From: a virus | Reading direction: 5' to 3' (one strand) | DNA length: 64,000 nucleotides | Virus record (IMG/VR): IMGVR_UViG_3300025138_000015 | Shown here: positions 4,135 through 28,142 of the stretch, one piece after another | Layout: each line of letters opens with the position of its first letter | Position numbering within the stretch: the stretch's first letter is position 1 | The notes under the pieces: generated by a model | What the model was told of the DNA's origin: nothing | What the model saw: the letters and a program-made list of their open reading frames with translations, nothing else | Databases searched by the model: none | Translations under genes and position numbers: made by a program

Positions 4135-5715
4135 TTAATCTAAAAACCATCTATCTCCATCAGCATCGACAAAGGATTCAGTATTGTTCTGTCCTGTATC
4201 GAATACACCTGCTGGTAATATATCGTCTTCTATTTGTTTTTGTTGTTCTGCGTATAATAGTTCTTTAACTTGTCTATCAGTTAAATGGTAAAAGTGTTCT
4301 GTTGTCACAAACCATGAGAATAACACTAGATTCATAACCATATCGTCATGAAACCCTCTATCTGCCTCAAAACTAGTACCTTTACTTATAAAAGTCATGA
4401 GTTCGGTGATACCTTCTCTATCACATATTGTCATTCGGTTCTCTTCTAATAACTCTTTTAATGTCGAACAACCTATTCTTTTAATTCTTTTAGTCATTGT
4501 CACACCGATATCTTCTGCTTTACTCATACCTTGAACAAAGACATTTGGATATTCTATATCATAATGTAGTTGTGTTGCAACCATTCCACCCTCTGCATTG
4601 TTCTCAATGATTACTAATGATTCATTATAGGGTGTAGTATACTTTGCAATTAGGTCTGGAAATAACATAGGAGATATCATATTATCTCTATAGGTACAAA
4701 CCTGTCTGAATGGTTTCACTGATATATCCATAATAGTAAATGTAGAATAGTCTATTCCACGACCTTTGGAGACATCAACAGTAGTAATATATGTGTGTCC
4801 TTCTTTAGGTTTCTCATATACTTTAACACCATCTCTGTTCCAATCTGGTTCTTTTGCCATTAAACCCAATAATGTATTAGAATTTATAAGAGTATTACCT
4901 GTTCCTAAGAATGAGTTTCCATACTCTTGTTCAAATTGTGCTTCTGATGTGTTTGCAATAGTCTCTTTCTTCCATTCTTCATCTCTTCCTGGTACATCGA
5001 ACCAGTTAATAAGAAAGTGTTTATATTCAGATTGTTTATGAACGGCACTTTCATATATCTTATAGAACATATTACCAACACCGTTTGCAGTAGATGTAAT
5101 GATAACCTTAGAATCTTTACCAGATGTGACAACAGGATATGTTGCAGTATAGAATGTCTCTGCATCATCAACGAAGGCAAACTCATCAAGATACAAGAGG
5201 TTAATAGACAATCCACGGATACTGGAACTGGAAGTTGCCGCAGCGACTACTTTTGAGTCGTTTGCAAATTCTATGGACCCTTTGTTAAGTATTTTTACTC
5301 CAGGTTGTAGGAAAAAGGGAACACTTTCCAACATGGTTACCATTCTTGCAATCATTTCTCTTGCAATTGCACCTTTGTTTGCCAAAACAGCAACAGTGAC
5401 TTCTGGATTAAAGAGTAAAAACCATAATAGATACGCACAAGATGTGATTGATTTACCACTCTGACGAGATGCAAGAACGATATTAAAACGATTTGAGTTG
5501 TAGTGTTCGATGAGTCTGTCTTGGTACCCACGAAGTTTAAAGGGTACCATACCCTCATCTAGTGATATAATTTGTGTATAGTTCTCAATAAAATGACAAG
5601 GGTCTTGTGAACATTTCACATACTCTTGCATTTCTTGGTCGGAATACTTAGTTTCAATACCTGACCTTTTGACTAAAGTGTTACCTAAGTAACCTTCGTT
5701 TTTAGGTTGTACCAT
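4135..5715 (-). CDS. gp17: Terminase large subunit gp17
   Basis: Walker A SRQSGKS, Walker B LYLDEFAF, IITSTANG, nuclease VDVSKGRGIDYS and HDDMVM. Confidence 0.97.
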   Translation of the reverse strand: MVQPKNEGYLGNTLVKRSGIETKYSDQEMQEYVKCSQDPCHFIENYTQIISLDEGMVPFKLRGYQDRLIEHYNSNRFNIVLASRQSGKSITSCAYLLWFLLFNPEVTVAVLANKGAIAREMIARMVTMLESVPFFLQPGVKILNKGSIEFANDSKVVAAATSSSSIRGLSINLLYLDEFAFVDDAETFYTATYPVVTSGKDSKVIITSTANGVGNMFYKIYESAVHKQSEYKHFLINWFDVPGRDEEWKKETIANTSEAQFEQEYGNSFLGTGNTLINSNTLLGLMAKEPDWNRDGVKVYEKPKEGHTYITTVDVSKGRGIDYSTFTIMDISVKPFRQVCTYRDNMISPMLFPDLIAKYTTPYNESLVIIENNAEGGMVATQLHYDIEYPNVFVQGMSKAEDIGVTMTKRIKRIGCSTLKELLEENRMTICDREGITELMTFISKGTSFEADRGFHDDMVMNLVLFSWFVTTEHFYHLTDRQVKELLYAEQQKQIEDDILPAGVFDTGQNNTESFVDADGDRWFLD

Positions 5716-6463
5716 GTTTTAAACCCCAATGAGATATAGGCAGATGATTTGATAATTCATGTTTGCCATCAAATGTAAAAATCCAACCCAAATAATTCCA
5801 TGTTTCAATTGACTTGTAGTATGTTAAAAATTCCAAGTTTCCTTCCCATATTATCTTTTTATAATGAAAATTATTTCTATACATCAAATTTTCTTTTATA
5901 TCAGGATAGTAATCTTGTAAGAACTGTTTAGAATATTTGGAATGTTTATCATAACCTATATCTTCGTATTCACAAGTTGACTCTCCTCTGATATCTGATA
6001 GTTGCACTTTATTTGGATATAGTTTATCTATAAAGTTATGTCTTGTTGCGTATTCAACTAAGTCCAGTATGTGTCCAACATCTAACTCTTTATCTTCTTC
6101 TTTATAAAAGTTTTTAAGAAATCGTTTTTCATCCCAAAGTTCTGATGTTAACCATTCATGCAAGTAGATATCACATTCTGGTAATTCTGTTTCTAGTAAA
6201 TCACCATGAATATACTCTACTGTATCTCCTAGAATCTCTTTCATTCTATCTATAAGTTCAGACCGTCTCTCTAAGGCATATACTTTCTTTGCACCATACT
6301 TGACTGCAAGATAACATAGTATGCCTGAACCAGCACCCAAATCTATGACTATTTTATCTTTAACATTCTCTGATATCCAATTCTCATATGATGTATTTCT
6401 TTGAGAGTCGGTGAAGCAATATGCGGTTTTAAAGAACTCCACATCTTTTGGTGGTTTAATCAT
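5702..6463 (-). CDS. Class I SAM-dependent methyltransferase, protein arginine methyltransferase (PRMT)-like
   Basis: Motif I VIDLGAGSG, post-I VYALE, CDIYLHEWLTSELWDE (double-E-loop-like), C-terminal SHW. Confidence 0.75.
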   Translation of the reverse strand: MIKPPKDVEFFKTAYCFTDSQRNTSYENWISENVKDKIVIDLGAGSGILCYLAVKYGAKKVYALERRSELIDRMKEILGDTVEYIHGDLLETELPECDIYLHEWLTSELWDEKRFLKNFYKEEDKELDVGHILDLVEYATRHNFIDKLYPNKVQLSDIRGESTCEYEDIGYDKHSKYSKQFLQDYYPDIKENLMYRNNFHYKKIIWEGNLEFLTYYKSIETWNYLGWIFTFDGKHELSNHLPISHWGLKHGTT

Positions 6464-9613: not shown

Positions 9614-9621
9614 TATTTATA
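9614..9621 (-). promoter_or_regulatory. Late promoter TATAAATA for the gp13 operon
   Basis: Exact consensus upstream of gp13. Confidence 0.75.
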
Positions 9622-9627
9622 CAGATT

Positions 9628-9888
9628 CTATTCTTGGAAATAGGTTTTACTCTGGAGTCTATCTATCTTCTCATCAATTCTTTGAAGTTGTCTAGCAAGT
9701 CTTTCCATGTCTTGTTCAATCTCTTGCCTGGTGACATAGTCTCTAGCAACCTCTTCTCGTGTTTTGTTAACTAGAATATCAAGTCTTTTCTGTTCTGAGA
9801 GAACTGACCTTACAAGAAACCCTAACGGTGCTAATACTACCGTTATAAGTATATTCCAAATTACATGTGCGTCGATTATTAATTCCAT
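9628..9888 (-). CDS. Small protein with N-terminal TM helix and coiled coil (holin-like/hypothetical)
   Basis: Hydrophobic IWNILITVVLAPLGFLV followed by heptad-like charged region; CATAAATA promoter at 9894-9901. Confidence 0.6.
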   Translation of the reverse strand: MELIIDAHVIWNILITVVLAPLGFLVRSVLSEQKRLDILVNKTREEVARDYVTRQEIEQDMERLARQLQRIDEKIDRLQSKTYFQE

Positions 9889-9906: not shown

Positions 9907-10629
9907 TCACTGTTCTAAAGTCGACACCTGAAGAATTTTTCCATCTAAAGTTATATCAAATAGAGTTTCATCCCAACGGAAACCCTCAATTTCTTCTACT
10001 TTATTGTCACCTTTGAATTTATAACCCATATTAAATGATATACTATATCTATCTCTATCTGTAGTATTTGGTTCGACCATGTGAGTTAAACCACTAGGAA
10101 AGATATACAACATTCCTGTCTTAGGTTGAAAGTGTTCGTTATCATTGAATCTAGGAGAATTAGGAAAATCACCCATAACTCTTGATGTATCTGACATTGC
10201 AATAAAATCACCTTCATCACCTTGTGCATCTATGTAAAAAGCACCTGACATCCAACAACCATTGTGTTTATGTGGTTTGTTCCAAGCACCCTTATCATTG
10301 ATATTTGCCCATGAGTTATGCATATCGACTACATGACCTTTATGTCTTTCTAACCCCCAAAAAGGCCAAACCTCTTCATAGAGAGTGTCTTTTATACATG
10401 ACATCAATTTCATAAATGCTGGATTGGTATCACAACCATCATTTGATTGCCAACCTGTATCTGCATTTGATATCTTTCTACCTTTAGGGTCGTTTGACCT
10501 CATTTCATCCACCGTTCTTTTAAGTAGAGTCATATAATTATCGTCAAGTGCATTATATTGTGGGTCTAATAAATCTCTTATAAAGACCATTTGTGGGGCA
10601 ATAAACTTAACTGGCATCTTTGTCTCCAA
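9907..10629 (-). CDS. Putative 2OG-Fe(II) oxygenase (TIGR02466 / 2OG-FeII_Oxy_5-like)
   Basis: WANIN..GAWNKPHKH, SGAFY, IFPSGLTHMVEPN, RYSISFN. Confidence 0.85.
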   Translation of the reverse strand: METKMPVKFIAPQMVFIRDLLDPQYNALDDNYMTLLKRTVDEMRSNDPKGRKISNADTGWQSNDGCDTNPAFMKLMSCIKDTLYEEVWPFWGLERHKGHVVDMHNSWANINDKGAWNKPHKHNGCWMSGAFYIDAQGDEGDFIAMSDTSRVMGDFPNSPRFNDNEHFQPKTGMLYIFPSGLTHMVEPNTTDRDRYSISFNMGYKFKGDNKVEEIEGFRWDETLFDITLDGKILQVSTLEQ

Positions 10630-11611
10630 AGTCCATCTCTAGTTGTATTTCGTTTGATTCTTCACTGACATGCATAGGGCATTCAGGTGGTATTTCTAAT
10701 TTGTTTTCTGCATTACCAAATAGTTTGCTTTTAGAAACATGCATACCTAGTTTTCTATAAGGTCCTAAACCACCCTCTTCTAATAGATTCGATTCATTTA
10801 TGGCTGCTTGAACTGATTTCGATGTAATTGAACCATCATTTCTAACATCTTGAAGCTTCTTTTTCTTTTTATTCCTATCTTCTTTCAGTTCTCTATATTC
10901 TAAGTGTAAAGTGGTTGTTTGTTCGTCTCTGTCTTTATATGGAGATGTGATATCTGACATATTATCTATAAAAGCTTTCGGGTCTTTAATCTGTGCCGAT
11001 GAAGACCACTCCTCTCTTCTAAATGGAATTACCTGAACAATTGGTGTTCCTTTTGGTATAATAAATGAATGGTTAACTTTGGGATAGAATATAATTTGTG
11101 CATTGTCCATGTTTAGATTAAACTTATCAGTATCAATTATACCTGGCCAAACACTAAAATGTTGATTCTGGTGTAAGAATGGGTCTAAGTAAAGTGTAGA
11201 ATAACCATCAGGTGTTTTTATATTCCAAGGATTTCTAAATTTAAATGCATCTTTTACTGGAAGTCCAGACATTTTCTCTGGTTCCATAGCATTCCCAAAT
11301 TGTGTGTCTGGATGACTTGTTGAACCTATTTTCTTTTGTTCATAAGACCAAGCAGTCGATTGGGTTCCGTCATCAGAATTTAAATCTTGACCTACTTGAA
11401 CTACGATATCTGTTTCTGCAACTAGATAATACCCCATAGTCAACCAATCCTGCATAGCAGGACATGCTCTGATAGTCTGTTGTTTGTCACCTCTAACTAT
11501 CTCATTAATTCTCATCTTTTTCCACCATTCAGGTTGAACTTTAGATGCAAGAATAGGTTTACTATGTTTAACGGTATTAGGGTTGTATGATGTAAATTCA
11601 ATTGTTGGCAT
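10607..11611 (-). CDS. Conserved phage protein, DUF6065-like (dUTPase-like beta fold suspected)
   Basis: CPAMQD..GY, PWNIKTPDGYSTL, GIIDTD, IPKGTPIVQVIPFRRE; family call from memory. Confidence 0.55.
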   Translation of the reverse strand: MPTIEFTSYNPNTVKHSKPILASKVQPEWWKKMRINEIVRGDKQQTIRACPAMQDWLTMGYYLVAETDIVVQVGQDLNSDDGTQSTAWSYEQKKIGSTSHPDTQFGNAMEPEKMSGLPVKDAFKFRNPWNIKTPDGYSTLYLDPFLHQNQHFSVWPGIIDTDKFNLNMDNAQIIFYPKVNHSFIIPKGTPIVQVIPFRREEWSSSAQIKDPKAFIDNMSDITSPYKDRDEQTTTLHLEYRELKEDRNKKKKKLQDVRNDGSITSKSVQAAINESNLLEEGGLGPYRKLGMHVSKSKLFGNAENKLEIPPECPMHVSEESNEIQLEMDFGDKDAS

Positions 11612-12339
11612 TATAAAAGTGTACTCTTTCTTTTGAACTCTACTTCGGTGTATTTTAAATATCTGGTGTTTTGGTCTTTGACAAGTTCAATCTCATCTCC
11701 TCTCACCACTAAAGATTTTCTATCCATGTATCTTGCTGATTCATTCGGAGCATCTGCACCATGAGGTATTCTTCCATCAAATATGACAAGTCTATTAGGA
11801 ACAAACTCGACTTCGGCTACTTGATGTTTTTCAATATGTTCTTGTCTTCCGTCTAAACCTTGATGTGGTTTATCGAACATTCTCAATGTACCACCCCAAT
11901 TAGGATTCCAAAATGTATTTGGGTAATATAGAAATGATATATTCCATGCGTCATCATTTGGACAATCTTGATGTATTGTTCCTGGACAACCTTGTGATTG
12001 TGAATTAAGGCCTGCATATTGAAAACGAGTATATTTAAAACCAAACTCTGTTTCTAATCTTTCTATAAGATACTTTACGAAGAATGTGTCTATTGGTTCC
12101 ATATCTTGTTCTATTGCATAATTATCTCTAAAGAAAGATGCACCCCAAAAAGAATGGTGTGCAAGACCTGTAGGACTATTACTAGACACTTGATTTGTCT
12201 TAGACCACCAACTACTTGTTGTTATGAGTTTATCAAAGTGATGTTGAAGTTCAACTGATAACCAATCATCTAAGACATAGATATCCTTTAAAGGCATGTC
12301 CTGTATATGAAATGGTTTATCAATATGAACAACTTGCAT
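11611..12339 (-). CDS. 2OG-Fe(II) oxygenase, prolyl 4-hydroxylase-like (2OG-FeII_Oxy_3-like)
   Basis: HQD..., LYYPN..WNPNWGG, PNRLVIFDGRIPH, distal R. Confidence 0.85.
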   Translation of the reverse strand: MQVVHIDKPFHIQDMPLKDIYVLDDWLSVELQHHFDKLITTSSWWSKTNQVSSNSPTGLAHHSFWGASFFRDNYAIEQDMEPIDTFFVKYLIERLETEFGFKYTRFQYAGLNSQSQGCPGTIHQDCPNDDAWNISFLYYPNTFWNPNWGGTLRMFDKPHQGLDGRQEHIEKHQVAEVEFVPNRLVIFDGRIPHGADAPNESARYMDRKSLVVRGDEIELVKDQNTRYLKYTEVEFKRKSTLL

Positions 12340-12921
12340 TTAAGACTGTCCTAAATCCACATGTCCTGTTGCCATTGCAGCTGCTGGTATTTGTCTTCTA
12401 TAATGTTCGAAGTCTTTAAGTAATTCTTCTTTAGTGCTAAAGATTTCATCACGGATTTGAAAGTAAACATTGTGAGTATTATCAATATACTCTAAAACTC
12501 TTCTAGCATTTCCTCTTGCTGGATGGTTGGAACCTTCTCTGCCGGCAATTAGAACCATTTGCAAATCACGGAATCCATATAATTGAGCTACCTCTTCATG
12601 TTGTTCCCTAACAACAAAATTAAGTTTTTCAGCATATTGTGATTGAAGATTTATATCTTCTGGTGCTTCAGAGTTTGAAATATATTGTTCACACAATTCT
12701 TTCTCCATATCATTTAAAGCTACCTGTTCCTGGTCTTCGAATCTCTTTCCAGGAATCCATTCCATAATTTTCATTTCAATATCATCATAGACGACAACAT
12801 CAAATTCAAAACCTAATGCAGGTTTATCAACATTCTCGAATGTGTATTCAAGTCCGTTTGGTTTTCTTATATAAAGGTTCTTGTTTTCACAAAATACCAG
12901 TGCGTTCATTTGTTGATTCAT
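12340..12921 (-). CDS. Hypothetical protein within the enzyme cluster
   Basis: 193-aa ORF tightly packed between neighbours, GAGG RBS. Confidence 0.7.
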   Translation of the reverse strand: MNQQMNALVFCENKNLYIRKPNGLEYTFENVDKPALGFEFDVVVYDDIEMKIMEWIPGKRFEDQEQVALNDMEKELCEQYISNSEAPEDINLQSQYAEKLNFVVREQHEEVAQLYGFRDLQMVLIAGREGSNHPARGNARRVLEYIDNTHNVYFQIRDEIFSTKEELLKDFEHYRRQIPAAAMATGHVDLGQS

Positions 12922-12924
12922 AAT

Positions 12925-14559
12925 TTATCCTCTCTTTAAATTATTTAGGTTGTCTCTACGAGTCTTAATTTCCTCGTAATGAGATAGTCGTTTAATGTTA
13001 GATGTATCCATATTTTCTATCCAAGGACCACCTCTTGTATAATGATAACCAGAACAACCCCATTTGGTTTCCGGATTATCATATCCTTCAGTAAAGATGT
13101 AATGTTCAGGTATCTTACTCAATTTATCTGTCCATTCAAACTGATGCAACTGAGCACCTGTCCATGAATTAACAACATCTGGTGTTAGTTTCTTACAATC
13201 TTCATGACCATTGTTAAATATCATTAATGAAGACCATAATTTACATGGATAGTCTATGTTTATTTCACCATTAAACTTAACAGAATCATGTGCGTATTGT
13301 GGGTATTGAATACATGCAACAGCATTATCAGGATTTAAATAGTATAACATTGGTAATAGTGATTTTTCAAAAAGAATATCGTCATCAATAAACATACTAA
13401 AACCTTCATAATTCTCTAAGTAAGGTATTAAGAATCTACTGTATGTAAACGCAGTAGATTGATTCTTATACTCCCTATTATACTCTGGAATCTTTGAATA
13501 GTCAAGATACTTTATTTCAGGCATGAATTGATTTGTAGTATCACCTTGTGAGTATGTTGAACGAATACTCGATTCTATTGAGAACTTTGTTAAATCTTCA
13601 ATTTGTTTATGTGTAGAATCATAACCAATGTATATATTAAATGGTTTTCCTTTTGCAAGTTTATGCACCTTCCTGTTAAACTCATATACTTTAGGTCTGA
13701 AATCCCCCACATTTGCAAACTCACTATTGACTTCTATAACTCCACCTGTTATAATAAAAGATAAATTATCTTGTGTGATTCCTCTTTTTTTGAGTAAGTC
13801 TTTCCAATAATCTAAAAATTCATCAACTGTTGCTGGTTTTATTTCAGGAACTTTATTATGTGGGTCAAAGAAATGACATAACATACTAGGGTCTTGCATC
13901 TCTTCAATAACACCTGAACGAACAGAACCTGGATGAACAAAGAACTTAAATTTCTCATCACCATATGATGTGTCTTTTAAAATAACTCCTTGAATTGGTG
14001 CCCATAATCCTTCTTCGATTATACTTTGAGTTAACCAATGGGCTTTTGCTGAGTGATAGTAGGAACTATCCCACATATTCTTTAGATTTGTATTTGTTTT
14101 GTCATCTTCGTCAACACCTACTCCGTGAGATTGTATATATCTTTCTCCGTTTGGGTCTTCTTCAGTTCTTATCATGTTTGTATTCATTCCCATTGGAAAC
14201 ATTTCTGCTGTAGGACCACAAGTATAACCATGAGGTAAGAATTGATTGTATGTGAGAGAGTGGTGTTTTAGACCGTGCATTGTCACCATGTTGTTGTCTC
14301 TTCTATCTTGCATCACATCACCATATGTGAATAACTTTAGAGGAGGAACTTTACCTTCTTCGAAGATTTTCTTTAAAATTAGATAACAAGGATTATGTTC
14401 TTTCATAACCCTATTTACATTAAGACTTCCTAAATGATAGTGTGGATTTTTGTCTCTTATTGCAAAAGCACTTTCACAACCATCAAAGTCTATAGGTATA
14501 ATTGAGTCTACATCGTCAACTGTTTTAATGTCTGTAAAATCGGGATTATTTGATGCCAT
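12925..14559 (-). CDS. Fusion: N-terminal unknown (possible ParB/Srx-like) domain plus C-terminal GT-A glycosyltransferase
   Basis: C-term IYIGYD, STAFTYSRFLIPYL, FIDDD (DxD), WSSLMIFNN, LHQFEW, HYTRGGPW; N-term SIIEEGLWAPI...HPGSVR. Confidence 0.75.
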   Translation of the reverse strand: MASNNPDFTDIKTVDDVDSIIPIDFDGCESAFAIRDKNPHYHLGSLNVNRVMKEHNPCYLILKKIFEEGKVPPLKLFTYGDVMQDRRDNNMVTMHGLKHHSLTYNQFLPHGYTCGPTAEMFPMGMNTNMIRTEEDPNGERYIQSHGVGVDEDDKTNTNLKNMWDSSYYHSAKAHWLTQSIIEEGLWAPIQGVILKDTSYGDEKFKFFVHPGSVRSGVIEEMQDPSMLCHFFDPHNKVPEIKPATVDEFLDYWKDLLKKRGITQDNLSFIITGGVIEVNSEFANVGDFRPKVYEFNRKVHKLAKGKPFNIYIGYDSTHKQIEDLTKFSIESSIRSTYSQGDTTNQFMPEIKYLDYSKIPEYNREYKNQSTAFTYSRFLIPYLENYEGFSMFIDDDILFEKSLLPMLYYLNPDNAVACIQYPQYAHDSVKFNGEINIDYPCKLWSSLMIFNNGHEDCKKLTPDVVNSWTGAQLHQFEWTDKLSKIPEHYIFTEGYDNPETKWGCSGYHYTRGGPWIENMDTSNIKRLSHYEEIKTRRDNLNNLKRG

Positions 14560-14560
14560 A

Positions 14561-14598
14561 AAATATCTGTATTAGTTTAATTAATACAGATATTTAGG
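14561..14598 (-). promoter_or_regulatory. Perfect 14-bp inverted repeat abutting the glycosyltransferase start, overlapping a CCTAAATA late-promoter variant
   Basis: aaatatctgtatta (14561-14574) / taatacagatattt (14582-14595). Confidence 0.6.
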
Positions 14599-14605
14599 TG
14601 TTATT

Positions 14606-15388
14606 TTATGAAGAGACTGGAGATGCTGGCCAAGTTTGTGCTAAACTACCATCCCAACGAGCAACTGGTGTTTGACCTTGTGTTCCATATGTGAATGGAC
14701 TTCTGTTCTGATAAGTGAACGGAGTCTGACCTTGTCTTGCATATGTTCCAGGTTGTCTATTCTGATAAGTGAACGGAGTCTGACCTTGTCTTGAATATGT
14801 AGTAGGATTCTGATTAGAATATGTGAAAGGAGTTTGTCCTTGTCTTGCATATGTTCCAGGTTGCCTATTCTGATATGTTCCAGGTTGTCTTGCATTCGCA
14901 ATGTAAGGTTGCTGACCATTTACAGGATTCTGATAGATAGCAGGTTGTCTTGCATTCGCAATATAAGGTTGTTGACCATTTACAGGATTTCTGTAAGTAA
15001 ATGGACTTCTAGCATTCGCAATATATGGTTGCTGAGCATTTACAGGATTTCTGTAAGTAAATGGTTGTCTCGCATTGGCAATGTAAGGTTGTTGGGCAGA
15101 AACAGGGTTTCTGTATCCAGCAGGATACCTAGCATTGTAAGTAAACGGTTGCTGAGCATTACTAGGTGACTGAGCATTCGCAGGATACCTAGCATTATAA
15201 GTGAAAGGTGTTCTTGCATTACTAGGTGACTGTGCATTTGCAGGATATCTTGCATTATAAGTGAAAGGTGTTCTTGCATTATAAGTGAAAGGTGTTCTTG
15301 CACTATAAGTAAATGGGTTTCGACCACTTGCTATAAAAGGCTGCCTTGCATTTCCTATTGCAGGTGCATAATAGAATCCAATTGCCAT
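14606..15388 (-). CDS. Q/N/P/Y/R-rich tandem-repeat protein A2 (putative fibre-tip protein)
   Basis: Repeats PFTY, QQPYIANARQP, RQPGTYARQGQTPFTY; GAGGAG RBS. Confidence 0.8.
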   Translation of the reverse strand: MAIGFYYAPAIGNARQPFIASGRNPFTYSARTPFTYNARTPFTYNARYPANAQSPSNARTPFTYNARYPANAQSPSNAQQPFTYNARYPAGYRNPVSAQQPYIANARQPFTYRNPVNAQQPYIANARSPFTYRNPVNGQQPYIANARQPAIYQNPVNGQQPYIANARQPGTYQNRQPGTYARQGQTPFTYSNQNPTTYSRQGQTPFTYQNRQPGTYARQGQTPFTYQNRSPFTYGTQGQTPVARWDGSLAQTWPASPVSS

Positions 15389-16200
15389 GTTATTTAACTC
15401 CTCTTAATATATACATTATCTCGCCTCGAAGTTTGGCATGAAGCTATTGAAGCCGCCACCGTCACCGCCGCCGCCGAACGGTTGGTAATATGGATATGGT
15501 GCCAGATATAAGAATGGATATGTAAACGGATTCTGAGCATTACCTGAGAATGGTTGTTGTCCATTCGCAATGTACGGTTGTCTTGCATTCGCAATGTACG
15601 GTTGTCTTGCATTCGCAATATAAGGCACACGATATGTAAATGGATTTCTGTATGTAAATGGTTGTCTAGCATTAGCAATATAAGGAACACGATATGTAAA
15701 CGGATTCCTATATGTAAATGGACTTCTAGCATTTGCAATATAAGGCACCTGATAACCTACAGGATTTCTGTATGTAAATGGAGACCTTGCTTGATATGTA
15801 AATGGACTCTGACCGCTTACAGGATTTCTATATGTAAATGGACTTCTATTAGCATATGTAAATGGTTGCTGAGCATTTACAGGATTTCTGTATGTAAACG
15901 GAGACCTATTACTATATGTAAATGGATTTTGACTACTAGACGGATTTCTATATGTGAATGGTTGTCTATTCTGATATGTAAACGGTGTTTGACTATTCGC
16001 AATATACGGAGTCTGACTGTTCGCTATATAAGGATAAGGTTGTTGTGCATTCGCAATATAGGGTTGACCACCATTAGCAATATACGGATACGGTTGTTGT
16101 GCATTCGCAATATATGGGGTCTGACTGTTTGCAATGTATGGGTAAGGTTGTTGTGCATTCGCAATGTATGGTTGTTGACCATTTGCAATATACGGATAGG
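14690..16200. repeat. Coding tandem repeats (24, 30, 54 and 60 bp units) in repeat proteins A1/A2
   Basis: 60-bp units visible at 14881-15240; recurring gcattcgcaat and atatgtaaatgg. Confidence 0.85.
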
Positions 16201-16363
16201 GTGCTTGAACTATTGCCTGACCTGATGCATTATTCCAACCTGATGGAGTTTTTACATAAATCTGGTCAACATCTTTCCAAGTTGTTGAACTTGTCTTAAC
16301 CCATGCCCCTCTGGTTGAATTCCATCCAGCTGGGGTTTTAACCTTTTGATTACCTGTTACCAT
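15416..16363 (-). CDS. Tandem-repeat protein A1 with N-terminal Trp-rich VK-T-x-x-x-W attachment-like domain
   Basis: N-term KVKTPAGW / WVKTSSTTW / YVKTPSGW, then QQPYPYIANA and PFTYRNP repeats. Confidence 0.8.
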   Translation of the reverse strand: MVTGNQKVKTPAGWNSTRGAWVKTSSTTWKDVDQIYVKTPSGWNNASGQAIVQAPYPYIANGQQPYIANAQQPYPYIANSQTPYIANAQQPYPYIANGGQPYIANAQQPYPYIANSQTPYIANSQTPFTYQNRQPFTYRNPSSSQNPFTYSNRSPFTYRNPVNAQQPFTYANRSPFTYRNPVSGQSPFTYQARSPFTYRNPVGYQVPYIANARSPFTYRNPFTYRVPYIANARQPFTYRNPFTYRVPYIANARQPYIANARQPYIANGQQPFSGNAQNPFTYPFLYLAPYPYYQPFGGGGDGGGFNSFMPNFEAR

Positions 16364-16381: not shown

Positions 16382-18445
16382 TTAAGAGTAGTAAATCCAT
16401 AAGTCACCAACTGCACCATCTGAACCAGAAGGAGTTGAAGTTGACTGATATATATTTCTTGCTGTACCGCCACTATTTGTGGCATTCGTTATTGTTATTG
16501 CACCTGATGCTACTGTACCTAATGATACATTTGAACCACTCTCATATTTAGTATTCAATGCAGTTTGTAATCCGTCAACATTTGCAATTGTATGATTATG
16601 TGAATCATCAGCAACTGTTGCTGTTATTGATATGTTTGCACTTCCATTAAAACTTGCAGAACCCGATAGGTCTCCACCAAGTGATATTGTTCTTGCTGTC
16701 TCTAAGACTGTTGCTGAACCAGCATTTCCTGAAACTGTTCCAGTGACATTACCAGTTAGATTACCTTCGAATGTTGATGCAACAAAAGTTTCTGAACCTA
16801 CTGTCCATTTGTCATTTGTTTCATCCCAAACAAGAGTCTTAGCTGCAGAACCACCTCTAGTGACACTTATTCCTGAATCTTGTGTTGGTGAACCTGAAGT
16901 GAAGTCTGAGTTCAATGCAATAATGTTATCTGCAAGATTGATTGTTTCTGAATTAACTGTTGTAGTTGTTCCTGATACTGTTAAGTTACCTGAAACGGTT
17001 AGTGAATCACTAACTGCAACAACACCTGTTCCGTTTGCACTCAATGTTAGGTTAGTATCTGTACTTCTGGATTCGATTGAATCTACATCAATTGCGTTTG
17101 AGAATGATATTGCATTTCCGTCTGATGATGATACATTCTTACCTGCAGTAATTTGTACCGCACCTTTTAATTGAATTGCACCAGTTCCAGTAGGATTAAG
17201 TTCTACATCACCTGAACCACTTGTTTGAACTGATACATTTTGGTTTGCATCAGCAGAAACAGTAATTGTACCTGAATTATCAGATACTACTTGTTGTCCG
17301 TTAACATATAAAGACCCAGGTCCAACATAGATATCTCTCCATTGTTTCGAAGAAGAACCTAAGTCGTATGTGACATCGGCATTCGGTATGATATGACCTG
17401 ATAAATTACCACCACCTAGGAATGATTGAACTTGTGAGTCACCATAATCGTTAGAAAGTGTTAATGTACCCGCTGCATCGTCATATGTAGAAGTGATGTT
17501 TGTTCCACCAACTACTAAACCATTTACGATATCTTCTATTTCTTCTTCTGTTTTACCTGAAGATGCAATTGTTAAAGTTCCCGCTGCGTCATCATATGTT
17601 GTTGATATGTTTGTTCCTGCAACTAATAATGCATTAACTCTGTCGTCAACTCTTTCGTTTGTAAAGTAGAGGTTTGTATTTTCTGTTAGGTTTGCAGTTG
17701 TTGAACTAGACTCATCTAGTAATTTTTTCCATGCACCAGCATGAGCAAAATAACCTGCTCCAGTTCCGTGAACATGAGCAAACATACCATGGTATGTACT
17801 TGCACTAGGTAAGTCACTTTCTGCAGAGTATACATTTGAGTACATCATCTTACCTGTTGTAGTAATATTGAATGCTTGTGCATCTAAGTTACCACCAAGT
17901 TGTGGTGTTGTATCTTCAACTACATTATTGATTGAAACTGCTTCTGCTCTTGCATCTGTAAAGTAAAGGTTAGATGAACCTTCATTGACATCGTCTGTAT
18001 TACCTGAAAGTTCTGATAATGCGTCTTTACTTGCTACTTGTGAATCAACATATGCTTTAATAGACTGCTGTGATGCAGCGTGAGTTGCACTGCCTGAGGA
18101 CATATCATCTTCGTCTTTAAGGTCGATTGCAATGTCATTTGCATTTACAGTCATACCTGTTCCAGCACCGACTGCTAATGTTGCATCACCGGATGATGCA
18201 TCACCAGTAAGACCAGCACCTGCAATGATACCTGTGATATCACCTTGTTGTCCTGATACTGTTAATGTTCCATTGGCATCATCATATGTTAATGTGATTC
18301 CTGTTCCTGCTGTTAATAGAGAATTAACTCTATCGTCAATTGATTCTACAATTGCTGTACCTGTTAAAGCACCAGCACTAGTTATAACCTCTACTCCGCC
18401 TACAGATAGACCATTCTTAATATTAAAGTTCTTTTCACCTGCCAT
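16382..18445 (-). CDS. Tail fibre-like protein (687 aa)
   Basis: G/S/T-rich; TYDDAAGTLT repeats, NLYFTDAR, TVSGNLTVSGTTTTVNS; ends GAVGDLWIYYS. Confidence 0.8.
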   Translation of the reverse strand: MAGEKNFNIKNGLSVGGVEVITSAGALTGTAIVESIDDRVNSLLTAGTGITLTYDDANGTLTVSGQQGDITGIIAGAGLTGDASSGDATLAVGAGTGMTVNANDIAIDLKDEDDMSSGSATHAASQQSIKAYVDSQVASKDALSELSGNTDDVNEGSSNLYFTDARAEAVSINNVVEDTTPQLGGNLDAQAFNITTTGKMMYSNVYSAESDLPSASTYHGMFAHVHGTGAGYFAHAGAWKKLLDESSSTTANLTENTNLYFTNERVDDRVNALLVAGTNISTTYDDAAGTLTIASSGKTEEEIEDIVNGLVVGGTNITSTYDDAAGTLTLSNDYGDSQVQSFLGGGNLSGHIIPNADVTYDLGSSSKQWRDIYVGPGSLYVNGQQVVSDNSGTITVSADANQNVSVQTSGSGDVELNPTGTGAIQLKGAVQITAGKNVSSSDGNAISFSNAIDVDSIESRSTDTNLTLSANGTGVVAVSDSLTVSGNLTVSGTTTTVNSETINLADNIIALNSDFTSGSPTQDSGISVTRGGSAAKTLVWDETNDKWTVGSETFVASTFEGNLTGNVTGTVSGNAGSATVLETARTISLGGDLSGSASFNGSANISITATVADDSHNHTIANVDGLQTALNTKYESGSNVSLGTVASGAITITNATNSGGTARNIYQSTSTPSGSDGAVGDLWIYYS

Positions 18446-18705: not shown

Positions 18706-18808
18706 ATTCGTTTGTCCTAGTCTAAGAATGTATTATTATACAGATATTTATAAGAAGTGAGTCCTCTCGGCACATACTTTTTTTAGATATCTACAATTTA
18801 TTTTTAGT

Positions 18809-24566: not shown

Positions 24567-25283
24567 CTAGGAATTAGGTTCTGATAATTGTGCTGTGGGT
24601 TGAGTTTGATGTATCTTTTCTGCAGTTCCAGAATTATTTACATATACTTCTGATGCTTTTCTTAGAGTGCCATTATCATTGACATATACTTGTTTAACTT
24701 TTGCCAAAGGACCTATTGTTCTTGTACTTGGAAAAGGATTTTGATATGTGAATGGACTTCTGTTCTGATAAGTAAATGGTTGTCTATTCTGATATGTTCC
24801 AGGTTGCCTTGCATTCGCAATATAAGGTTGTTGATAACTTGTAGGATTTCTATATGTACCAGGTTGTCTATTACTATATGTAAATGGTGTTTGACCTTGT
24901 CTATCATAGGTGAAAGGTGTTCTTGCCTGATAAGTGAAAGGAGTTTGACCTTGTCTTGCATATGTGAATGGTTGTCTATTTTCATATGTGAAAGGTGTTC
25001 GACCTGTGGCATTTGCAATGTATGTACTAGGTTGTCTATTATTATATGTTCCAGGTTGTCTTGCATCCGCAATATATGGGTGTTGATATATCGCAGGTTG
25101 TCTATTATTATATTCTGCAGGTTGTCGTGCATTCGCAATATAAGGTTGTTGATATGTAAATGGATGCCTGTATGTAAAAGGTTGCCTTGCACTTGCCTGA
25201 TACGGAGTTTGAGCATTACTAGGTTGTCTTGCATTAGCAATATAAGGTTGTTGAACTATAACTGGCTGTTGTCCTGTTGGCAT
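24567..25283 (-). CDS. Tandem-repeat protein B2 with C-terminal VYVN domain
   Basis: QQPYIANARQP, PFTY, RQPGTY repeats; ends VKQVYVNDNG..SEVYVNNSG. Confidence 0.8.
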   Translation of the reverse strand: MPTGQQPVIVQQPYIANARQPSNAQTPYQASARQPFTYRHPFTYQQPYIANARQPAEYNNRQPAIYQHPYIADARQPGTYNNRQPSTYIANATGRTPFTYENRQPFTYARQGQTPFTYQARTPFTYDRQGQTPFTYSNRQPGTYRNPTSYQQPYIANARQPGTYQNRQPFTYQNRSPFTYQNPFPSTRTIGPLAKVKQVYVNDNGTLRKASEVYVNNSGTAEKIHQTQPTAQLSEPNS

Positions 25284-26683
25284 TATCTAAACCCCGCCTG
25301 TGTACCATAAGTAGACCTTAGATATATCTGACTTATATGACCTTGAACAGCACCACTGTTGCTACAAATAAAATGAGTATAGTAAGTTGTTTGACCAGTC
25401 TTACTAGCTTTAATAGTAAATATAACACCTTGTGCCTGTGTCATTCCAGTTTGTTGATTGGTATTTGACGCTGATGCTGCCATCCACATAAATTGTTTAG
25501 AACTCGATGATGAACCATTCCAAATACTATAATAAGTACCGGCAATTCTACCAGCTATTCCTGTTGCCGGTGTGACTGTATCAGAAGTACCTCCACTAGC
25601 AGTTTGACTCTGAACAGTATACTTAACATCAATATTCCATGAACTATCAATTACATTATTATTATTAAGTTCTGTTAAAGGCAAATATATGTAATAAGGA
25701 TTGTAACCATAATAATCTGCATATGCTGTGGAATTTCCACCTGAATATTCATAATATACTTTATTTTGTGTTGAACTATAACCAATAATAAACTGAGCAA
25801 AACATTGACCATGTGAATAACTAAAATTCTGAATTTGAGTAGTTTGCCATGCATAATTTGGTAATCCACTGGCCAATGGATTAGTTGGGTAAAGAGGATT
25901 ACTCGGTGAGAATGCAGAGTTTGGGCTCGTTGTCATATGTGGAGAATTAGAACCCCACCATTCGTTTGATGACATACCTACAGTTGTATTGCTAACAGTT
26001 GAAAAAGGAGCATTTGTAGGACTTAAATCTGTTGTTGTTTCAATATTTGCGGTTGCTGAACTTCCCCCACCCCAAACATCGTAAGTCACAGGAGTCCGAC
26101 TTGATACTGCCGTACTATGATTATATGTAAATGGATGTTGATATATCGCAGGTTGTCTATTATCATATGTAAACGGATTCTGACCATTACTAGGTTGTTG
26201 TGCATCAGGTGTTGCTCTTGCCTGATATGTAAATGGTGTTTGACTATTTGCAATATAAGGAGTTTGAGAATTACTTGGTTGTCTGTTTTGATATGTAAAC
26301 GGTGTTTGACTATTTGCTATATAAGGTGTCTGTGCGTTAGCAGTATATGTAAATGGGTATGGTTGTTGTGCTGATGCCTGATATGGATTTTGTCCATTTG
26401 CAATATACGGATAAGGTTGTTGTGCGTTTGCTATATAAGGTTGTCTTGCATTCGCAATATATGGATATGCCTGTTGAGCATTCGCAATGTAAGGTGTCTG
26501 ATTACTTGTAGGATTCCTGTATAGGGCAGGATTTCTATTACTATATGTAAATGGTGATTGACTATTTGCTATGTACGGTTGTTGTGCATTCGCAATGTAT
26601 GGTTGTTGTGCATTCGAAGGTTGTCTATCATTGAAAGACTGTTGAATGGTTGTACCAGTATTTACATAAATCTTGTCTGACAT
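25283..26683 (-). CDS. Repeat protein B1: N-terminal repeats plus C-terminal aromatic-rich globular domain (putative receptor-binding)
   Basis: MSDKIYVN, QQPYIANA/QTPFTY repeats over ~200 aa, then non-repetitive S/T/Y/W-rich domain. Confidence 0.78.
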   Translation of the reverse strand: MSDKIYVNTGTTIQQSFNDRQPSNAQQPYIANAQQPYIANSQSPFTYSNRNPALYRNPTSNQTPYIANAQQAYPYIANARQPYIANAQQPYPYIANGQNPYQASAQQPYPFTYTANAQTPYIANSQTPFTYQNRQPSNSQTPYIANSQTPFTYQARATPDAQQPSNGQNPFTYDNRQPAIYQHPFTYNHSTAVSSRTPVTYDVWGGGSSATANIETTTDLSPTNAPFSTVSNTTVGMSSNEWWGSNSPHMTTSPNSAFSPSNPLYPTNPLASGLPNYAWQTTQIQNFSYSHGQCFAQFIIGYSSTQNKVYYEYSGGNSTAYADYYGYNPYYIYLPLTELNNNNVIDSSWNIDVKYTVQSQTASGGTSDTVTPATGIAGRIAGTYYSIWNGSSSSSKQFMWMAASASNTNQQTGMTQAQGVIFTIKASKTGQTTYYTHFICSNSGAVQGHISQIYLRSTYGTQAGFR

Positions 26684-26687
26684 GATT

Positions 26688-28142
26688 CTATATCACAAAC
26701 CATAAGTGACCTGATGCTGTCGAACCAACTCCAGATGGAACTGTTCCTGTTATCGTTTTATCCATCACTACATTATCACCATCTATTTTAACACCTTCTG
26801 CTGTATTAACACTGATATTTATATCACCGTCCAAAGGATTTCCTGTGTTAGTATTATATGATTTGGCTAAACCTGCTTCGGCATTAATGATTGCATTAAC
26901 TCTATCATCTGTAAAATAGAAACTATTCGAACCTTCTGATACTGAGTCTGTTGTATTTGTAGGATTAACAGGTTCCCAATAATTATTACCAGCATCCCAT
27001 GCTAAAACTTGTCCAGCAGTTGGAGTAGTTGAATAATTAACATCTGATAGTGCTGAAACACCGTGATTAGTTATACTTGAAATTGTTCCTGTGACATTAC
27101 CAGTCACATTTCCGATTAAATCACCAGTCACATTGCCTGTCACTGCACCATTTAATGTTGTTGCAGTAATAGTTGTTGCATGTAAACTCTGATATCTTTT
27201 TGATGAAGAACCTAATGTTCTAGTATTATCTGAATTAGGCATTATATTTGTGTCTACAACACCATTGATTGATACTGTATCACTTGCATCACTTCCTAAG
27301 TCTACATTTCCTGTAAAACTTGCAGTTGTTCCTGTAATACCACCTGATGACAAAGTACCTACTGTTGCAGTTCCAGTGACTCCTAAGTCACCACCAATTG
27401 TTGCATCATCTGAGACTACTAAGTCATCTGATGATGATAAATGTTCTGCTGAAACTGTTCCTGAGAATGTTCCATTTACTGCACTTGTTAATGAACCACC
27501 TGATAATGATGCAGTTCCGTCTGTGACTGTTGGTGCAGTTAATACTTTACCTGTTGCAAGTGTTATGTCGTCTTCTGCATAAGTTCTACCTGCAAGTTGT
27601 AGATTAAATCCACCTTGTAGAGTTGTGGTAACAGATGAATTATCTCCTTGAAGTATAATACCATTTGAGTTAGTATTATAGATTGTGTTCTGTAATGTTT
27701 CTGTAAAGAATGAAAGTATTGCACTTGATGTTGCAGTTCCTTCAAAAGAACCTGTGTATGCATAGATTTGTATTAAATCATTAGCACTTGCCGCCGATAT
27801 CAATTGTATGTTATAATAGAAAGCACCTGCAAGTCCACCAACTTGCCAATCACTTTGTTCTTCTAATAAGACACCGTTTTTAAATACTTGAACTCTATTT
27901 CCTTTGTATTTAAGAATGTTCCCATTTGCATCTGCACCTGTGAATGTTTGTTGTCCTGCAGTTGCAGTGTATCTATATTTTCCAAAGTAGAATGCTTTGT
28001 CTTCAACTGCGTTAACAGCATCGACTAGATTTTCACCTAATGCAGGTCTTAATCCTGAAACCTCACCAACATCTACGGCAAGTTCATTATACTTCAGTCT
28101 AAATTCATCTATTGTGCTATAATTGTCTACTGTTTTAGCCAT
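26688..28142 (-). CDS. Fibre/structural protein (484 aa)
   Basis: TIDEFRLKYNEL N-term, VQVFKNGVLL, GNVTG repeats, ALSDVN, ends ASGHLWFVI. Confidence 0.75.
   Translation of the reverse strand: MAKTVDNYSTIDEFRLKYNELAVDVGEVSGLRPALGENLVDAVNAVEDKAFYFGKYRYTATAGQQTFTGADANGNILKYKGNRVQVFKNGVLLEEQSDWQVGGLAGAFYYNIQLISAASANDLIQIYAYTGSFEGTATSSAILSFFTETLQNTIYNTNSNGIILQGDNSSVTTTLQGGFNLQLAGRTYAEDDITLATGKVLTAPTVTDGTASLSGGSLTSAVNGTFSGTVSAEHLSSSDDLVVSDDATIGGDLGVTGTATVGTLSSGGITGTTASFTGNVDLGSDASDTVSINGVVDTNIMPNSDNTRTLGSSSKRYQSLHATTITATTLNGAVTGNVTGDLIGNVTGNVTGTISSITNHGVSALSDVNYSTTPTAGQVLAWDAGNNYWEPVNPTNTTDSVSEGSNSFYFTDDRVNAIINAEAGLAKSYNTNTGNPLDGDINISVNTAEGVKIDGDNVVMDKTITGTVPSGVGSTASGHLWFVI

Follow-up and report, generated by a model that had tools for sequence, protein, structure and literature searches.

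Mirror-matched repeat proteins, probable fibre arms, beside a conserved oxygenase and glycosyltransferase cassette in a lineage of marine T4-like phages

Hydroxylases and glycosyltransferases that act on a virus's own repetitive or structural proteins are already known from Mimivirus, PBCV-1 and the mycobacteriophages. In Mimivirus, L230 is a lysyl hydroxylase and glucosyltransferase of the collagen system. Here we describe a locus in a 64,000-nucleotide stretch of the IMG/VR virus record IMGVR_UViG_3300025138_000015 (the window), in which two repeat proteins, G and F, are encoded directly upstream of a packed run of five genes, E, D, C, B and A, that includes two 2-oxoglutarate (2OG)-Fe(II) oxygenases and a GT-A-type glycosyltransferase. 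We consider what the repeat proteins are and whether the five-gene cassette acts on them.

The likeness to PBCV-1 lies in the pairing of a prolyl 4-hydroxylase (P4H)-type 2OG oxygenase with short proline-containing repeat proteins, the virus's own proline-rich proteins (Eriksson et al. 1999, as cited in PMC9301287), and in the idea that a virus hydroxylates its own proteins. PBCV-1 is, however, a eukaryotic virus with units of the (PAPK)n type and an enzyme whose activity on peptides has been shown, whereas the present system belongs to a bacteriophage, has one proline per octad in what would be a mirror-matched two-arm fibre, and is known from sequence alone. Mimivirus likewise directs a hydroxylase and a GT-A transferase at virus-encoded repetitive fibre proteins, and R699 (PDB 9dyt) is a fold match of E (Z 10.0), but the Mimivirus system concerns collagen Gly-X-Y triple helices and hydroxylysine, whereas the repeats described here have no Gly-X-Y and almost no Lys. 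In the protist Skp1 pathway a cytoplasmic P4H-type enzyme (PhyA) is combined with a GT8-fold enzyme, and the structure 6mw8 from that pathway matches E. The Skp1 pathway differs in serving a single proline of one protein, to which several transferases, starting with a GT60 enzyme, attach five sugars; no GT60 enzyme is found here. Mycobacteriophage virion glycosylation (Freeman et al. 2023, as cited in PMC12801897) and the PBCV-1 transferase A64R (PDB 2p6w), which matches the fold of E, resemble the present case in that virus-encoded transferases decorate the virus's own structural proteins, but their targets are capsid and tail-tube proteins and the systems include no hydroxylases.

The host recognition cluster of pelagimyophages (Zaragoza-Solas et al. 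2020, PMC7029224) lies in the same place, between baseplate or fibre genes and neck genes, and is rich in GT8 genes. It differs in that the GT8 enzymes are read in that article as modifiers of the host O-chain and neither the repeat proteins nor the five-gene run is mentioned in the passages covered here; its main text does not contain the word 'oxygenase'. With the C-terminal part of T4 gp5 (gp5C), the repeats share an eight-residue period, a kink residue and side chains that alternate between inside and outside. In the T4 gp37 needle, each chain runs out and back. Neither T4 protein has any sequence likeness to the repeat proteins, and the out-and-back arms would here be two separate proteins of complementary unit type. 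The gp5 C-terminal domain is a triple beta-helix of octapeptide VxGxxxxx units (PMC3004832).

The window is taken from an uncultured, pelagimyophage-like marine myovirus of the T4 type and holds its late structural region. PHROG matches within it include the portal, the tail sheath, the large and small terminase subunits, the sheath stabiliser gp15, the head closure protein gp14 and the adaptor gp13. The sheath protein shares 49% identity with its counterpart in Pelagibacter phage Mosig and 47% with the one in HTVC008M, and the G+C content of the window is about 35%. At the DNA level the region has no match to cultured phages, and near-identical DNA and protein searches against cultured phages found neither the region nor G nor D, with the limit that a low-complexity filter may hide G. 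All genes of interest lie on the minus strand, to which the window coordinates below refer. The repeat genes and the cassette are flanked by the neck genes gp13, gp14 and gp15 and by tail-fibre genes, and wherever a locus has enough flank, its genes follow the order N-M-L-K-I-H-G-F-E-D-C-B-A-p86-gp13-gp14-gp15.

The repeat pairs and their mirror rule

An earlier note on this DNA, made from the sequence alone, had described two repeat proteins directly upstream of a packed five-gene run in the late structural region, and both coordinates and content were found to be as it described. G (315 amino acids (aa), 15416-16363) starts with a conserved 50-aa N-terminal domain, which is followed by blocks of 4x18, 6x20 and 4x8 residues and by a Gly-rich tail. 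F (260 aa, 14606-15388) is its mirror partner: read from the C to the N terminus it has a conserved end of the WPATPVSS type and blocks of 4x18, 6x20 and 5x8 residues. Units such as PFTYxxRx and PYIANAxQ make up both proteins, and Tandem Repeats Finder detected DNA periods of 24, 54, 60 and 120 nucleotides (nt) across the two genes. The composition that the note had given for F is confirmed, with one Asp, zero Cys, Glu, His and Lys, and 22 Arg plus Lys residues against a single acidic one. A second pair of the same design consists of r466 (466 aa, 25283-26683), whose non-repeat C-terminal domain of about 240 aa is a candidate distal tip, and its mirror partner r238 (238 aa, 24567-25283), which has conserved YVN motifs at its C-terminal end.

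Each pair follows a fibre gene. H (687 aa, 16382-18445) matches tail-fibre families in PHROGs, and its C-terminal end precedes the G-F pair; the conserved stretch of H is its final ~35 residues, in which the motif GDLW-(I/V)-(L/Y)-YS is retained in 45/45 unique orthologues. A second fibre protein (484 aa, 26688-28142), ending in GHLWFVI, precedes the r466-r238 pair, and the same order is found in relatives.

More than 220 related stretches were found in IMG/VR contigs, with repeats far beyond chance expectation. The proteins they encode fall into four orthologous groups that can be told apart by their conserved ends: the N-terminal 50-aa domain in the G type (79% mean column identity over 41 sequences, compared with about 50% for the enzymes), the WPATPVSS-like C terminus in the F type, an N-terminal ..EIYVNTG.. 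in the r466 type and the C-terminal YVN motifs in the r238 type. The opposite end of G is hypervariable: relatives have a globular domain of about 150 aa, a Hint domain or a short Gly-rich tail like that of the window G. Members range from 206 to 808 aa and are cationic throughout, with Arg preferred to Lys and a median net charge of +21 for the G type and +23 for the F type. The family is narrow, with 136 matches among 1.84 billion representatives. Six long, weak matches from the search with F (P0251, P0259, P0260, P0270, P0280 and P0257) were rejected as unrelated low-complexity proteins.

The repeats are held in a strict register. In 172 unique repeat proteins, which contain 2331 octads, the spacing between Pro-led units is almost always even (2, 6, 8, 10, 12 and so on), with 8 dominant and odd spacings below 1%; units were cut at Pro, so that Pro stands at position 1 by construction, and after it the residues of the octads alternate. 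In the window, the Pro spacing of G is 4x(2,8,8), 6x(8,6,6), 4x8 and that of F, from C to N terminus, is 4x(10,8), 6x(8,6,6), 5x8. G and reversed F thus agree block by block, as 4x18, 6x20 and 4-5x8 residues, and the proline spacing of r466 is mirror-matched in the same way when r238 is read backwards. This rule extends to relatives. Among 44 unique adjacent G-F pairs, with repeat lengths of 154 to 475 residues, the lengths of the two partners correlate with r = 0.92 and a median difference of 8, and in 44/44 pairs reversed F gives a better alignment with G than forward F does. The mean alignment score was 1.44 for G against its own reversed F, compared with 0.59 against forward F and 0.85 against the reversed F of other loci.

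In a divergent lineage with contigs of ~155 kb, in which E is 38% identical to the window E, G and F are joined into a single chain of 808 aa (locus L162, 6662-9088), and this exact protein occurs on at least 24 contigs. It runs from a G-type N terminus through PxTY-type octads, a non-repeat middle of about 85 aa and PNIRN-type octads to an F-type C terminus. The second pair is also a single chain in this lineage (636 aa; P0258, locus L159, 10001-11911). On one 155-kb contig (locus L160, 15448-18949) neither the short fibre gene nor the fused repeat gene is intact: two small genes lie on the opposite strand, and the repeat gene is reduced to a 355-aa C-terminal part.

These results make it probable that the repeat proteins are parts of the virion fibre and form ordered fibre arms. 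G, F, r466 and r238 share the build of tail-fibre and receptor-binding proteins, in which the attachment end is conserved while the shaft differs in length and the distal end varies, and they are encoded among tail genes. The partners of each pair are most likely the outward and returning arms of one antiparallel, register-matched structure, since the strict even register and the mirror rule together point to an ordered two-arm fibre. In such a structure the conserved N-terminal domain of G and the conserved C-terminal end of F would lie together at the phage-proximal end, beside the C terminus of H, and the distal tip would be formed by the variable C-terminal end of G and the N terminus of F. 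The octads, with Pro at position 1 followed by alternating residues, would give an extended beta-type rod that is rich in Arg and nearly devoid of acidic residues and Lys. The octapeptide period, kink residue and alternating residues of gp5C-type triple beta-helices are all present in the repeats, but the mirror rule argues for hetero-pairing of two arms rather than for three intertwined identical chains. We infer that the arms pair physically and attach to H. A predicted complex of three copies of the C-terminal 130 aa of H with three copies of the N-terminal 62 aa of G scored 0.27 (mark 0.32), which speaks neither for nor against the attachment.

The earlier note had pictured the repeats as sticky, multivalent substrates, or alternatively as precursors of modified peptides. 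The cationic fibre parts that it proposed are borne out by the late structural module and the net charges given above, and the strict register with its mirror rule runs counter to a loose picture of this kind. It might still be supposed that the repeats lack a fixed structure and act as a disordered, cationic, Tyr-rich glue or as condensate-forming tails. Their sequence is of low complexity and rich in P, Q, N, Y and R, and no solved relative of G was found by sequence in the PDB, both of which suit that idea. Disordered linkers would not be expected, however, to hold odd Pro spacings below 1%, to match block by block in mirror order or to co-vary so closely in length, and we consider disorder improbable. 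That the repeats might be multicore precursors in the manner of ribosomally synthesized and post-translationally modified peptides, tailored and then cut into small peptides, is suggested by near-identical repeated units that adjoin tailoring-type enzymes. Against this stand the size of the proteins, their conserved docking ends and variable tip domains, the co-varying partner lengths, the lack of a leader peptide or of a cleavage motif between units, and a conserved block that holds no protease or exporter; such a precursor role is scarcely credible. The mirror match, the length co-variation, the fused lineage and the contrast of conserved attachment ends with variable far ends therefore favor fibre arms over both disordered glue and peptide precursors. 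Leaving the enzymes aside, the repeat pairs would represent an undescribed fibre design, in which two complementary arms are held in register and may be split or fused.

Some relatives of G carry an additional domain. Of 57 unique G-type proteins, 13 have a Hint domain of about 155 aa after the poly-Gly end, as does one protein of the r466 type; the distribution of the domain is sporadic, with examples in loci L071 (1022-2239), L152 (6515-8545) and L063 (1788-3020), and G of the window is without it. The layout is GGGG|CF.AGT ... VHN followed by 3-15 residues, and 14 aligned domains show no variation at Cys1, at the block-B His or at the terminal His-Asn. Pfam matches to the Hint clan are mostly below the curated cut-offs, and only Hom_end_hint in the protein of locus L066 exceeds its own. 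The likeness to bacterial intein-like (BIL) and other Hint domains is limited to these relatives of G and to the invariant residues; the +1 residue differs, being G, F, I, M, R or K and never Cys, Ser or Thr. Canonical splicing is therefore not expected, and a BIL-like autoprocessing domain is suggested instead. In the antiparallel model the domain would sit at the distal tip beside the N terminus of F. There a thioester formed at the poly-Gly end could trim the distal tip, or it could join the end of G covalently to the neighboring F N terminus, which would recreate the single-chain form encoded by the sister lineage.

The five-gene cassette and its expression signals

The genes E, D, C, B and A are packed, with gaps of 0-4 nt or overlaps. 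E (544 aa, 12925-14559) is a two-domain enzyme with an N-domain (residues 1-300) of no recognized kind and a C-domain (304-544) of GT8-type GT-A architecture. The C-terminal half scores 23.6 bits against Pfam Glyco_transf_8 (PF01501), narrowly below the 24.3 cut-off. The model of E has a predicted local distance difference test (pLDDT) score of 87, and its top fold match is LgtC (Z 16.1), followed by the GT8 protein 3tzt (15.9), GlyE (14.9), UGGT (14.3) and glycogenin (13.9); the Skp1 galactosyltransferase 6mw8 (Z 14.6, rmsd 2.9 over 189 residues), PBCV-1 A64R (11.8) and R699 (10.0) also match. The metal- and nucleotide-sugar-binding motif D392-x-D394 is invariant in 53 sequences. On the basis of the modeled fold and this Asp-x-Asp motif, with the Pfam threshold missed, we assign the C-domain as a GT8-type GT-A glycosyltransferase. 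Among these matches are lipopolysaccharide (LPS) enzymes such as LgtC as well as enzymes of protein glycans, namely GlyE, the Skp1 galactosyltransferase, glycogenin and A64R, so that the acceptor of E cannot be read from the fold. The N-domain occurs in only ~56 protein clusters, and nearly all of these have the two-domain length, about 500-550 aa. It gave no look-alike in the Atlas by features and no PDB match by profile, and fold searches with the whole model were filled by the glycosyltransferase domain; a 453-aa viral Atlas cluster without a name shares the two-domain shape of E, with template modeling (TM) scores of 0.62/0.73.

C (242 aa, 11611-12339) matches Pfam 2OG-FeII_Oxy_3 (PF13640) with 33.5 bits against a cut-off of 27, and its catalytic residues H123-x-D125, H193 and R207-x-S209 are invariant in 46 sequences. 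Its nearest solved relatives by profile are the prolyl 4-hydroxylase 6t8m (E 3e-4) and then PHD2 and Tpa1 (E about 0.1). C is thus assigned from sequence as a 2OG oxygenase of the prolyl-hydroxylase type, and hydroxylation of peptidyl proline would be its activity by likeness to these relatives. A (9907-10629, with the real start probably at the ATG at 10617) matches 2OG-FeII_Oxy_5 (PF13759) with 70.2 bits against a cut-off of 27, and residues H120, H122, H183 and R194-x-S196 are invariant. Its nearest solved chains, 3bvc and 2rg4, are both uncharacterized, and no member of the family has a known substrate.

The remaining two proteins are of less familiar kinds. D (193 aa, 12340-12921) is conserved with the cassette; it has no Pfam or PHROG family and no match in cultured phages, and its nearest Atlas clusters are unnamed viral proteins. 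B (334 aa, 10607-11611) consists of an N-terminal beta domain and a poorly modeled tail, with a pLDDT of 59 overall and about 75 for residues 1-210. Its sole family match is phrog_7084, for which no function is assigned. The earlier note had identified two 2OG oxygenases, a GT-A transferase and a DUF6065-like protein in this run: the first three are upheld, with intact motifs, and the last assignment, which concerned B, is not, as B gave no Pfam match even at E <= 10. Homologues of B occur in haloarchaeal tailed viruses and a few cyanophages. Among cultured viruses the nearest homologues, with about 30% identity across 200 aa, belong to HF1, HF2 and the HRTV and HCTV series, which is unusual for a gene of a marine phage.

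Upstream signals suggest when the cassette is expressed. The T4-type late-promoter motif TATAAATA is found upstream of the portal, sheath and gp13 genes, of an 86-aa gene before H and of other late genes, and 11/12 copies are on the coding strand. One copy (18745-18752) lies upstream of this 86-aa gene and fibre H, and another (9614-9621), upstream of gp13, delimits on the downstream side the unit to which the cassette belongs; a copy precedes gp13 in 41/50 unique loci. Exact copies of TATAAATA upstream of E are rare (1/40). Instead, TAAATA, mostly as (A/C)CTAAATA, stands ~32 nt before the E ATG in 42/46 unique upstream sequences. The same word is found upstream of p86 (45/48), G (25/46) and D (11/46) and upstream of neither B nor H. 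As a bare word CTAAATA is not enriched in the window (9 found against 16 expected), so the weight rests on its positional conservation across loci. In the window the motif (14591-14597) overlaps the 5′ arm of a hairpin in the F-E intergenic region (14561-14595; together 14561-14597). This hairpin is a perfect 14-bp stem (-14.6 kcal/mol, z -6.2) whose last base lies 2 nt upstream of the E start codon, and most loci have hairpins or terminators of differing sequence at this place, several of them typical terminators. A read-through RNA would bury the E start, whereas an RNA begun at the CTAAATA motif would not. Judged from these motifs, E-D-C-B-A may be transcribed late as a separate unit, independently of the abundant fibre genes.

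Does the cassette act on the fibre?

All five enzymes are present in 60/60 unique loci that reach from F to gp13, with E and gp13 separated by 4.6-6.0 kb. Median identity to the window is 71% for gp13, 63% for C, 51% for E, 50% for D, 49% for A and 46% for B. Even the most distant homologues of E (34-38% identity) keep the order fibre-repeat-E-D-C-B-A-gp13, and the E N-domain and D are found solely beside repeat genes. E, D and the repeats share one distribution, which is that of a single lineage.

We regard action of the cassette on the repeat proteins as plausible on circumstantial evidence. The cassette has been passed on with the fibres in this lineage, and at least C and E would act on freshly synthesized fibre proteins of the virion while these are still unassembled in the cytoplasm, the repeat arms being the prime candidates; the regularly spaced Pro (or Asn/Arg) residues would be hydroxylated and then O-glycosylated. 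We infer every one of these modification steps. What supports them is the invariance of the catalytic residues, the nearness of C to prolyl hydroxylases and of E to GT8 protein-glycan enzymes, the linkage in all 60 loci and its persistence in distant homologues, and the late-promoter-like motif with a hairpin or terminator before E. A complete fibre maturation pathway, in which C (perhaps A) hydroxylates Pro (or Asn/Arg), E adds a sugar and, in Hint-bearing relatives, the Hint domain trims or joins the product, is a bolder proposal that we consider rather doubtful. It would be, by analogy, a phage counterpart of the hydroxyproline glycosylation of collagen, extensin or Skp1.

Several observations weigh against modification of the fibre by the cassette. 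All loci belong to one phage lineage, and their co-occurrence therefore amounts to one evolutionary event. The earlier note had put forward the gene-neighborhood co-occurrence of repeats and enzymes as a check: it holds in every one of the 60 loci, but these are not independent, and oxygenases occur without the repeats in Mosig. At the same site by gp13, Mosig has six 2OG-type genes, a heme oxygenase and pcyA, and no PFTY/PYIAN protein was found in it; the site therefore gathers such genes anyway. Foreign genes, an ABC-transporter ATPase and a 430-aa protein, lie inside the cassette in some loci, and the second repeat pair is ~10 kb away from it. B shows no resemblance to a protein-modifying enzyme, and it has homologues in haloarchaeal viruses, from which repeats of this kind are not known. 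LgtC, the protein that best matches the fold of E, is an LPS enzyme, and pelagimyophage GT8 genes have been read as host O-chain modifiers (PMC7029224). Finally, Pro and Tyr in a tightly packed beta fibre may be purely structural.

Much of this would be explained if the repeats were fibre arms and the enzymes had nothing to do with them, being accessory genes of the host recognition cluster that were fixed early in the lineage. Their targets would then be the host envelope (O-chain or LPS, with superinfection blocked), other host or phage proteins, or small molecules. The GT8-rich host recognition clusters, the different oxygenase and pigment gene set of Mosig, the genes inserted in the cassette, the occurrence of B in haloarchaeal viruses and the LgtC match all agree with such an origin. 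Genes of the 2OG-FeII_Oxy_5 and P4H-like kinds are also widespread in marine phages (PHROG families 81 and 274), and the use of viral P4H has been termed cryptic (PMC9301287). The content of a true hot spot varies, however, whereas the cassette is invariant in 60/60 loci; the E N-domain and D are confined to the company of repeat genes, and expression, to judge by the late-promoter-like motif, coincides with virion assembly. We consider unrelated enzymes as probable as modification of the fibre.

The cassette could also be imagined to modify DNA or nucleotides, with an oxygenase that hydroxylates a base, a GT-A enzyme that adds a sugar, as in base J or glucosyl-hydroxymethylcytosine, and B as a dUTPase-like protein. 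Phage DNA hypermodification by an oxygenase and a glycosyltransferase does exist (bioRxiv 10.1101/2023.12.21.572611), and the modeled N-terminal domain of B resembles dUTPases (Foldseek E 4e-4). That resemblance is weak (TM by query ~0.25, in a model of low overall pLDDT), A and C match 2OG-FeII_Oxy_5 and the prolyl-hydroxylase type and not Tet/JBP, and the genes lie in the structural module behind late-promoter-like motifs. We judge a role in DNA modification to be quite remote.

Prolyl-hydroxylase-type and other 2OG oxygenase genes are among the commonest 'auxiliary' genes of marine viromes, and their use has been called cryptic (PMC9301287). For such genes, the lineage described here provides a concrete candidate substrate in abundant, trypsin-friendly repeat proteins that always stand beside two oxygenases and a sugar transferase. 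If the enzymes do act on the fibre, many phage oxygenases taken as 'metabolic' would need to be re-read as enzymes of virion maturation, and the hydroxylation or glycosylation of fibres would have to be counted among the factors by which phages of ocean bacteria recognize their hosts.

Inserted and neighboring genes

In the Mosig locus (L151, 7187-14293) a 517-aa fibre-like protein with a long Gly-rich C-terminal half precedes the six 2OG-oxygenase-type genes, two of which are annotated as ferrochelatase and endonuclease V. The ABC-transporter ATPase mentioned above lies between E and D in locus L066 (14457-15086), and the 430-aa protein between B and A in L012 (9323-10615); an identification of the latter as an ATP-grasp enzyme was dropped for want of Pfam support. 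The fused repeat gene and E of the ~155-kb lineage are separated by an inserted gene for a 288-aa protein of the Zeta-toxin/AAA_33 kinase-like kind (L162, 9108-9974; Pfam E 6e-8). Zeta toxins phosphorylate UDP-sugars, and a gene of this kind would fit a sugar-handling cassette.

Between the terminase genes of the window lies a methyltransferase-like gene (253 aa, 5702-6463) with generic Pfam matches only (RrnaAD, PrmA and Methyltransf_25), and it is not at the corresponding place in L152, L154 or L162. The Arg-rich repeats are an obvious candidate substrate for its product, but nothing ties the two together. A 71-aa PP-binding (carrier protein) gene is found between gp14 and gp15 in L154 (15711-15926). 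Between the cassette and gp13 lies the conserved gene p86 (9628-9888), whose 86-aa product combines a hydrophobic stretch at the N-terminal end with a helical tail that is charged.

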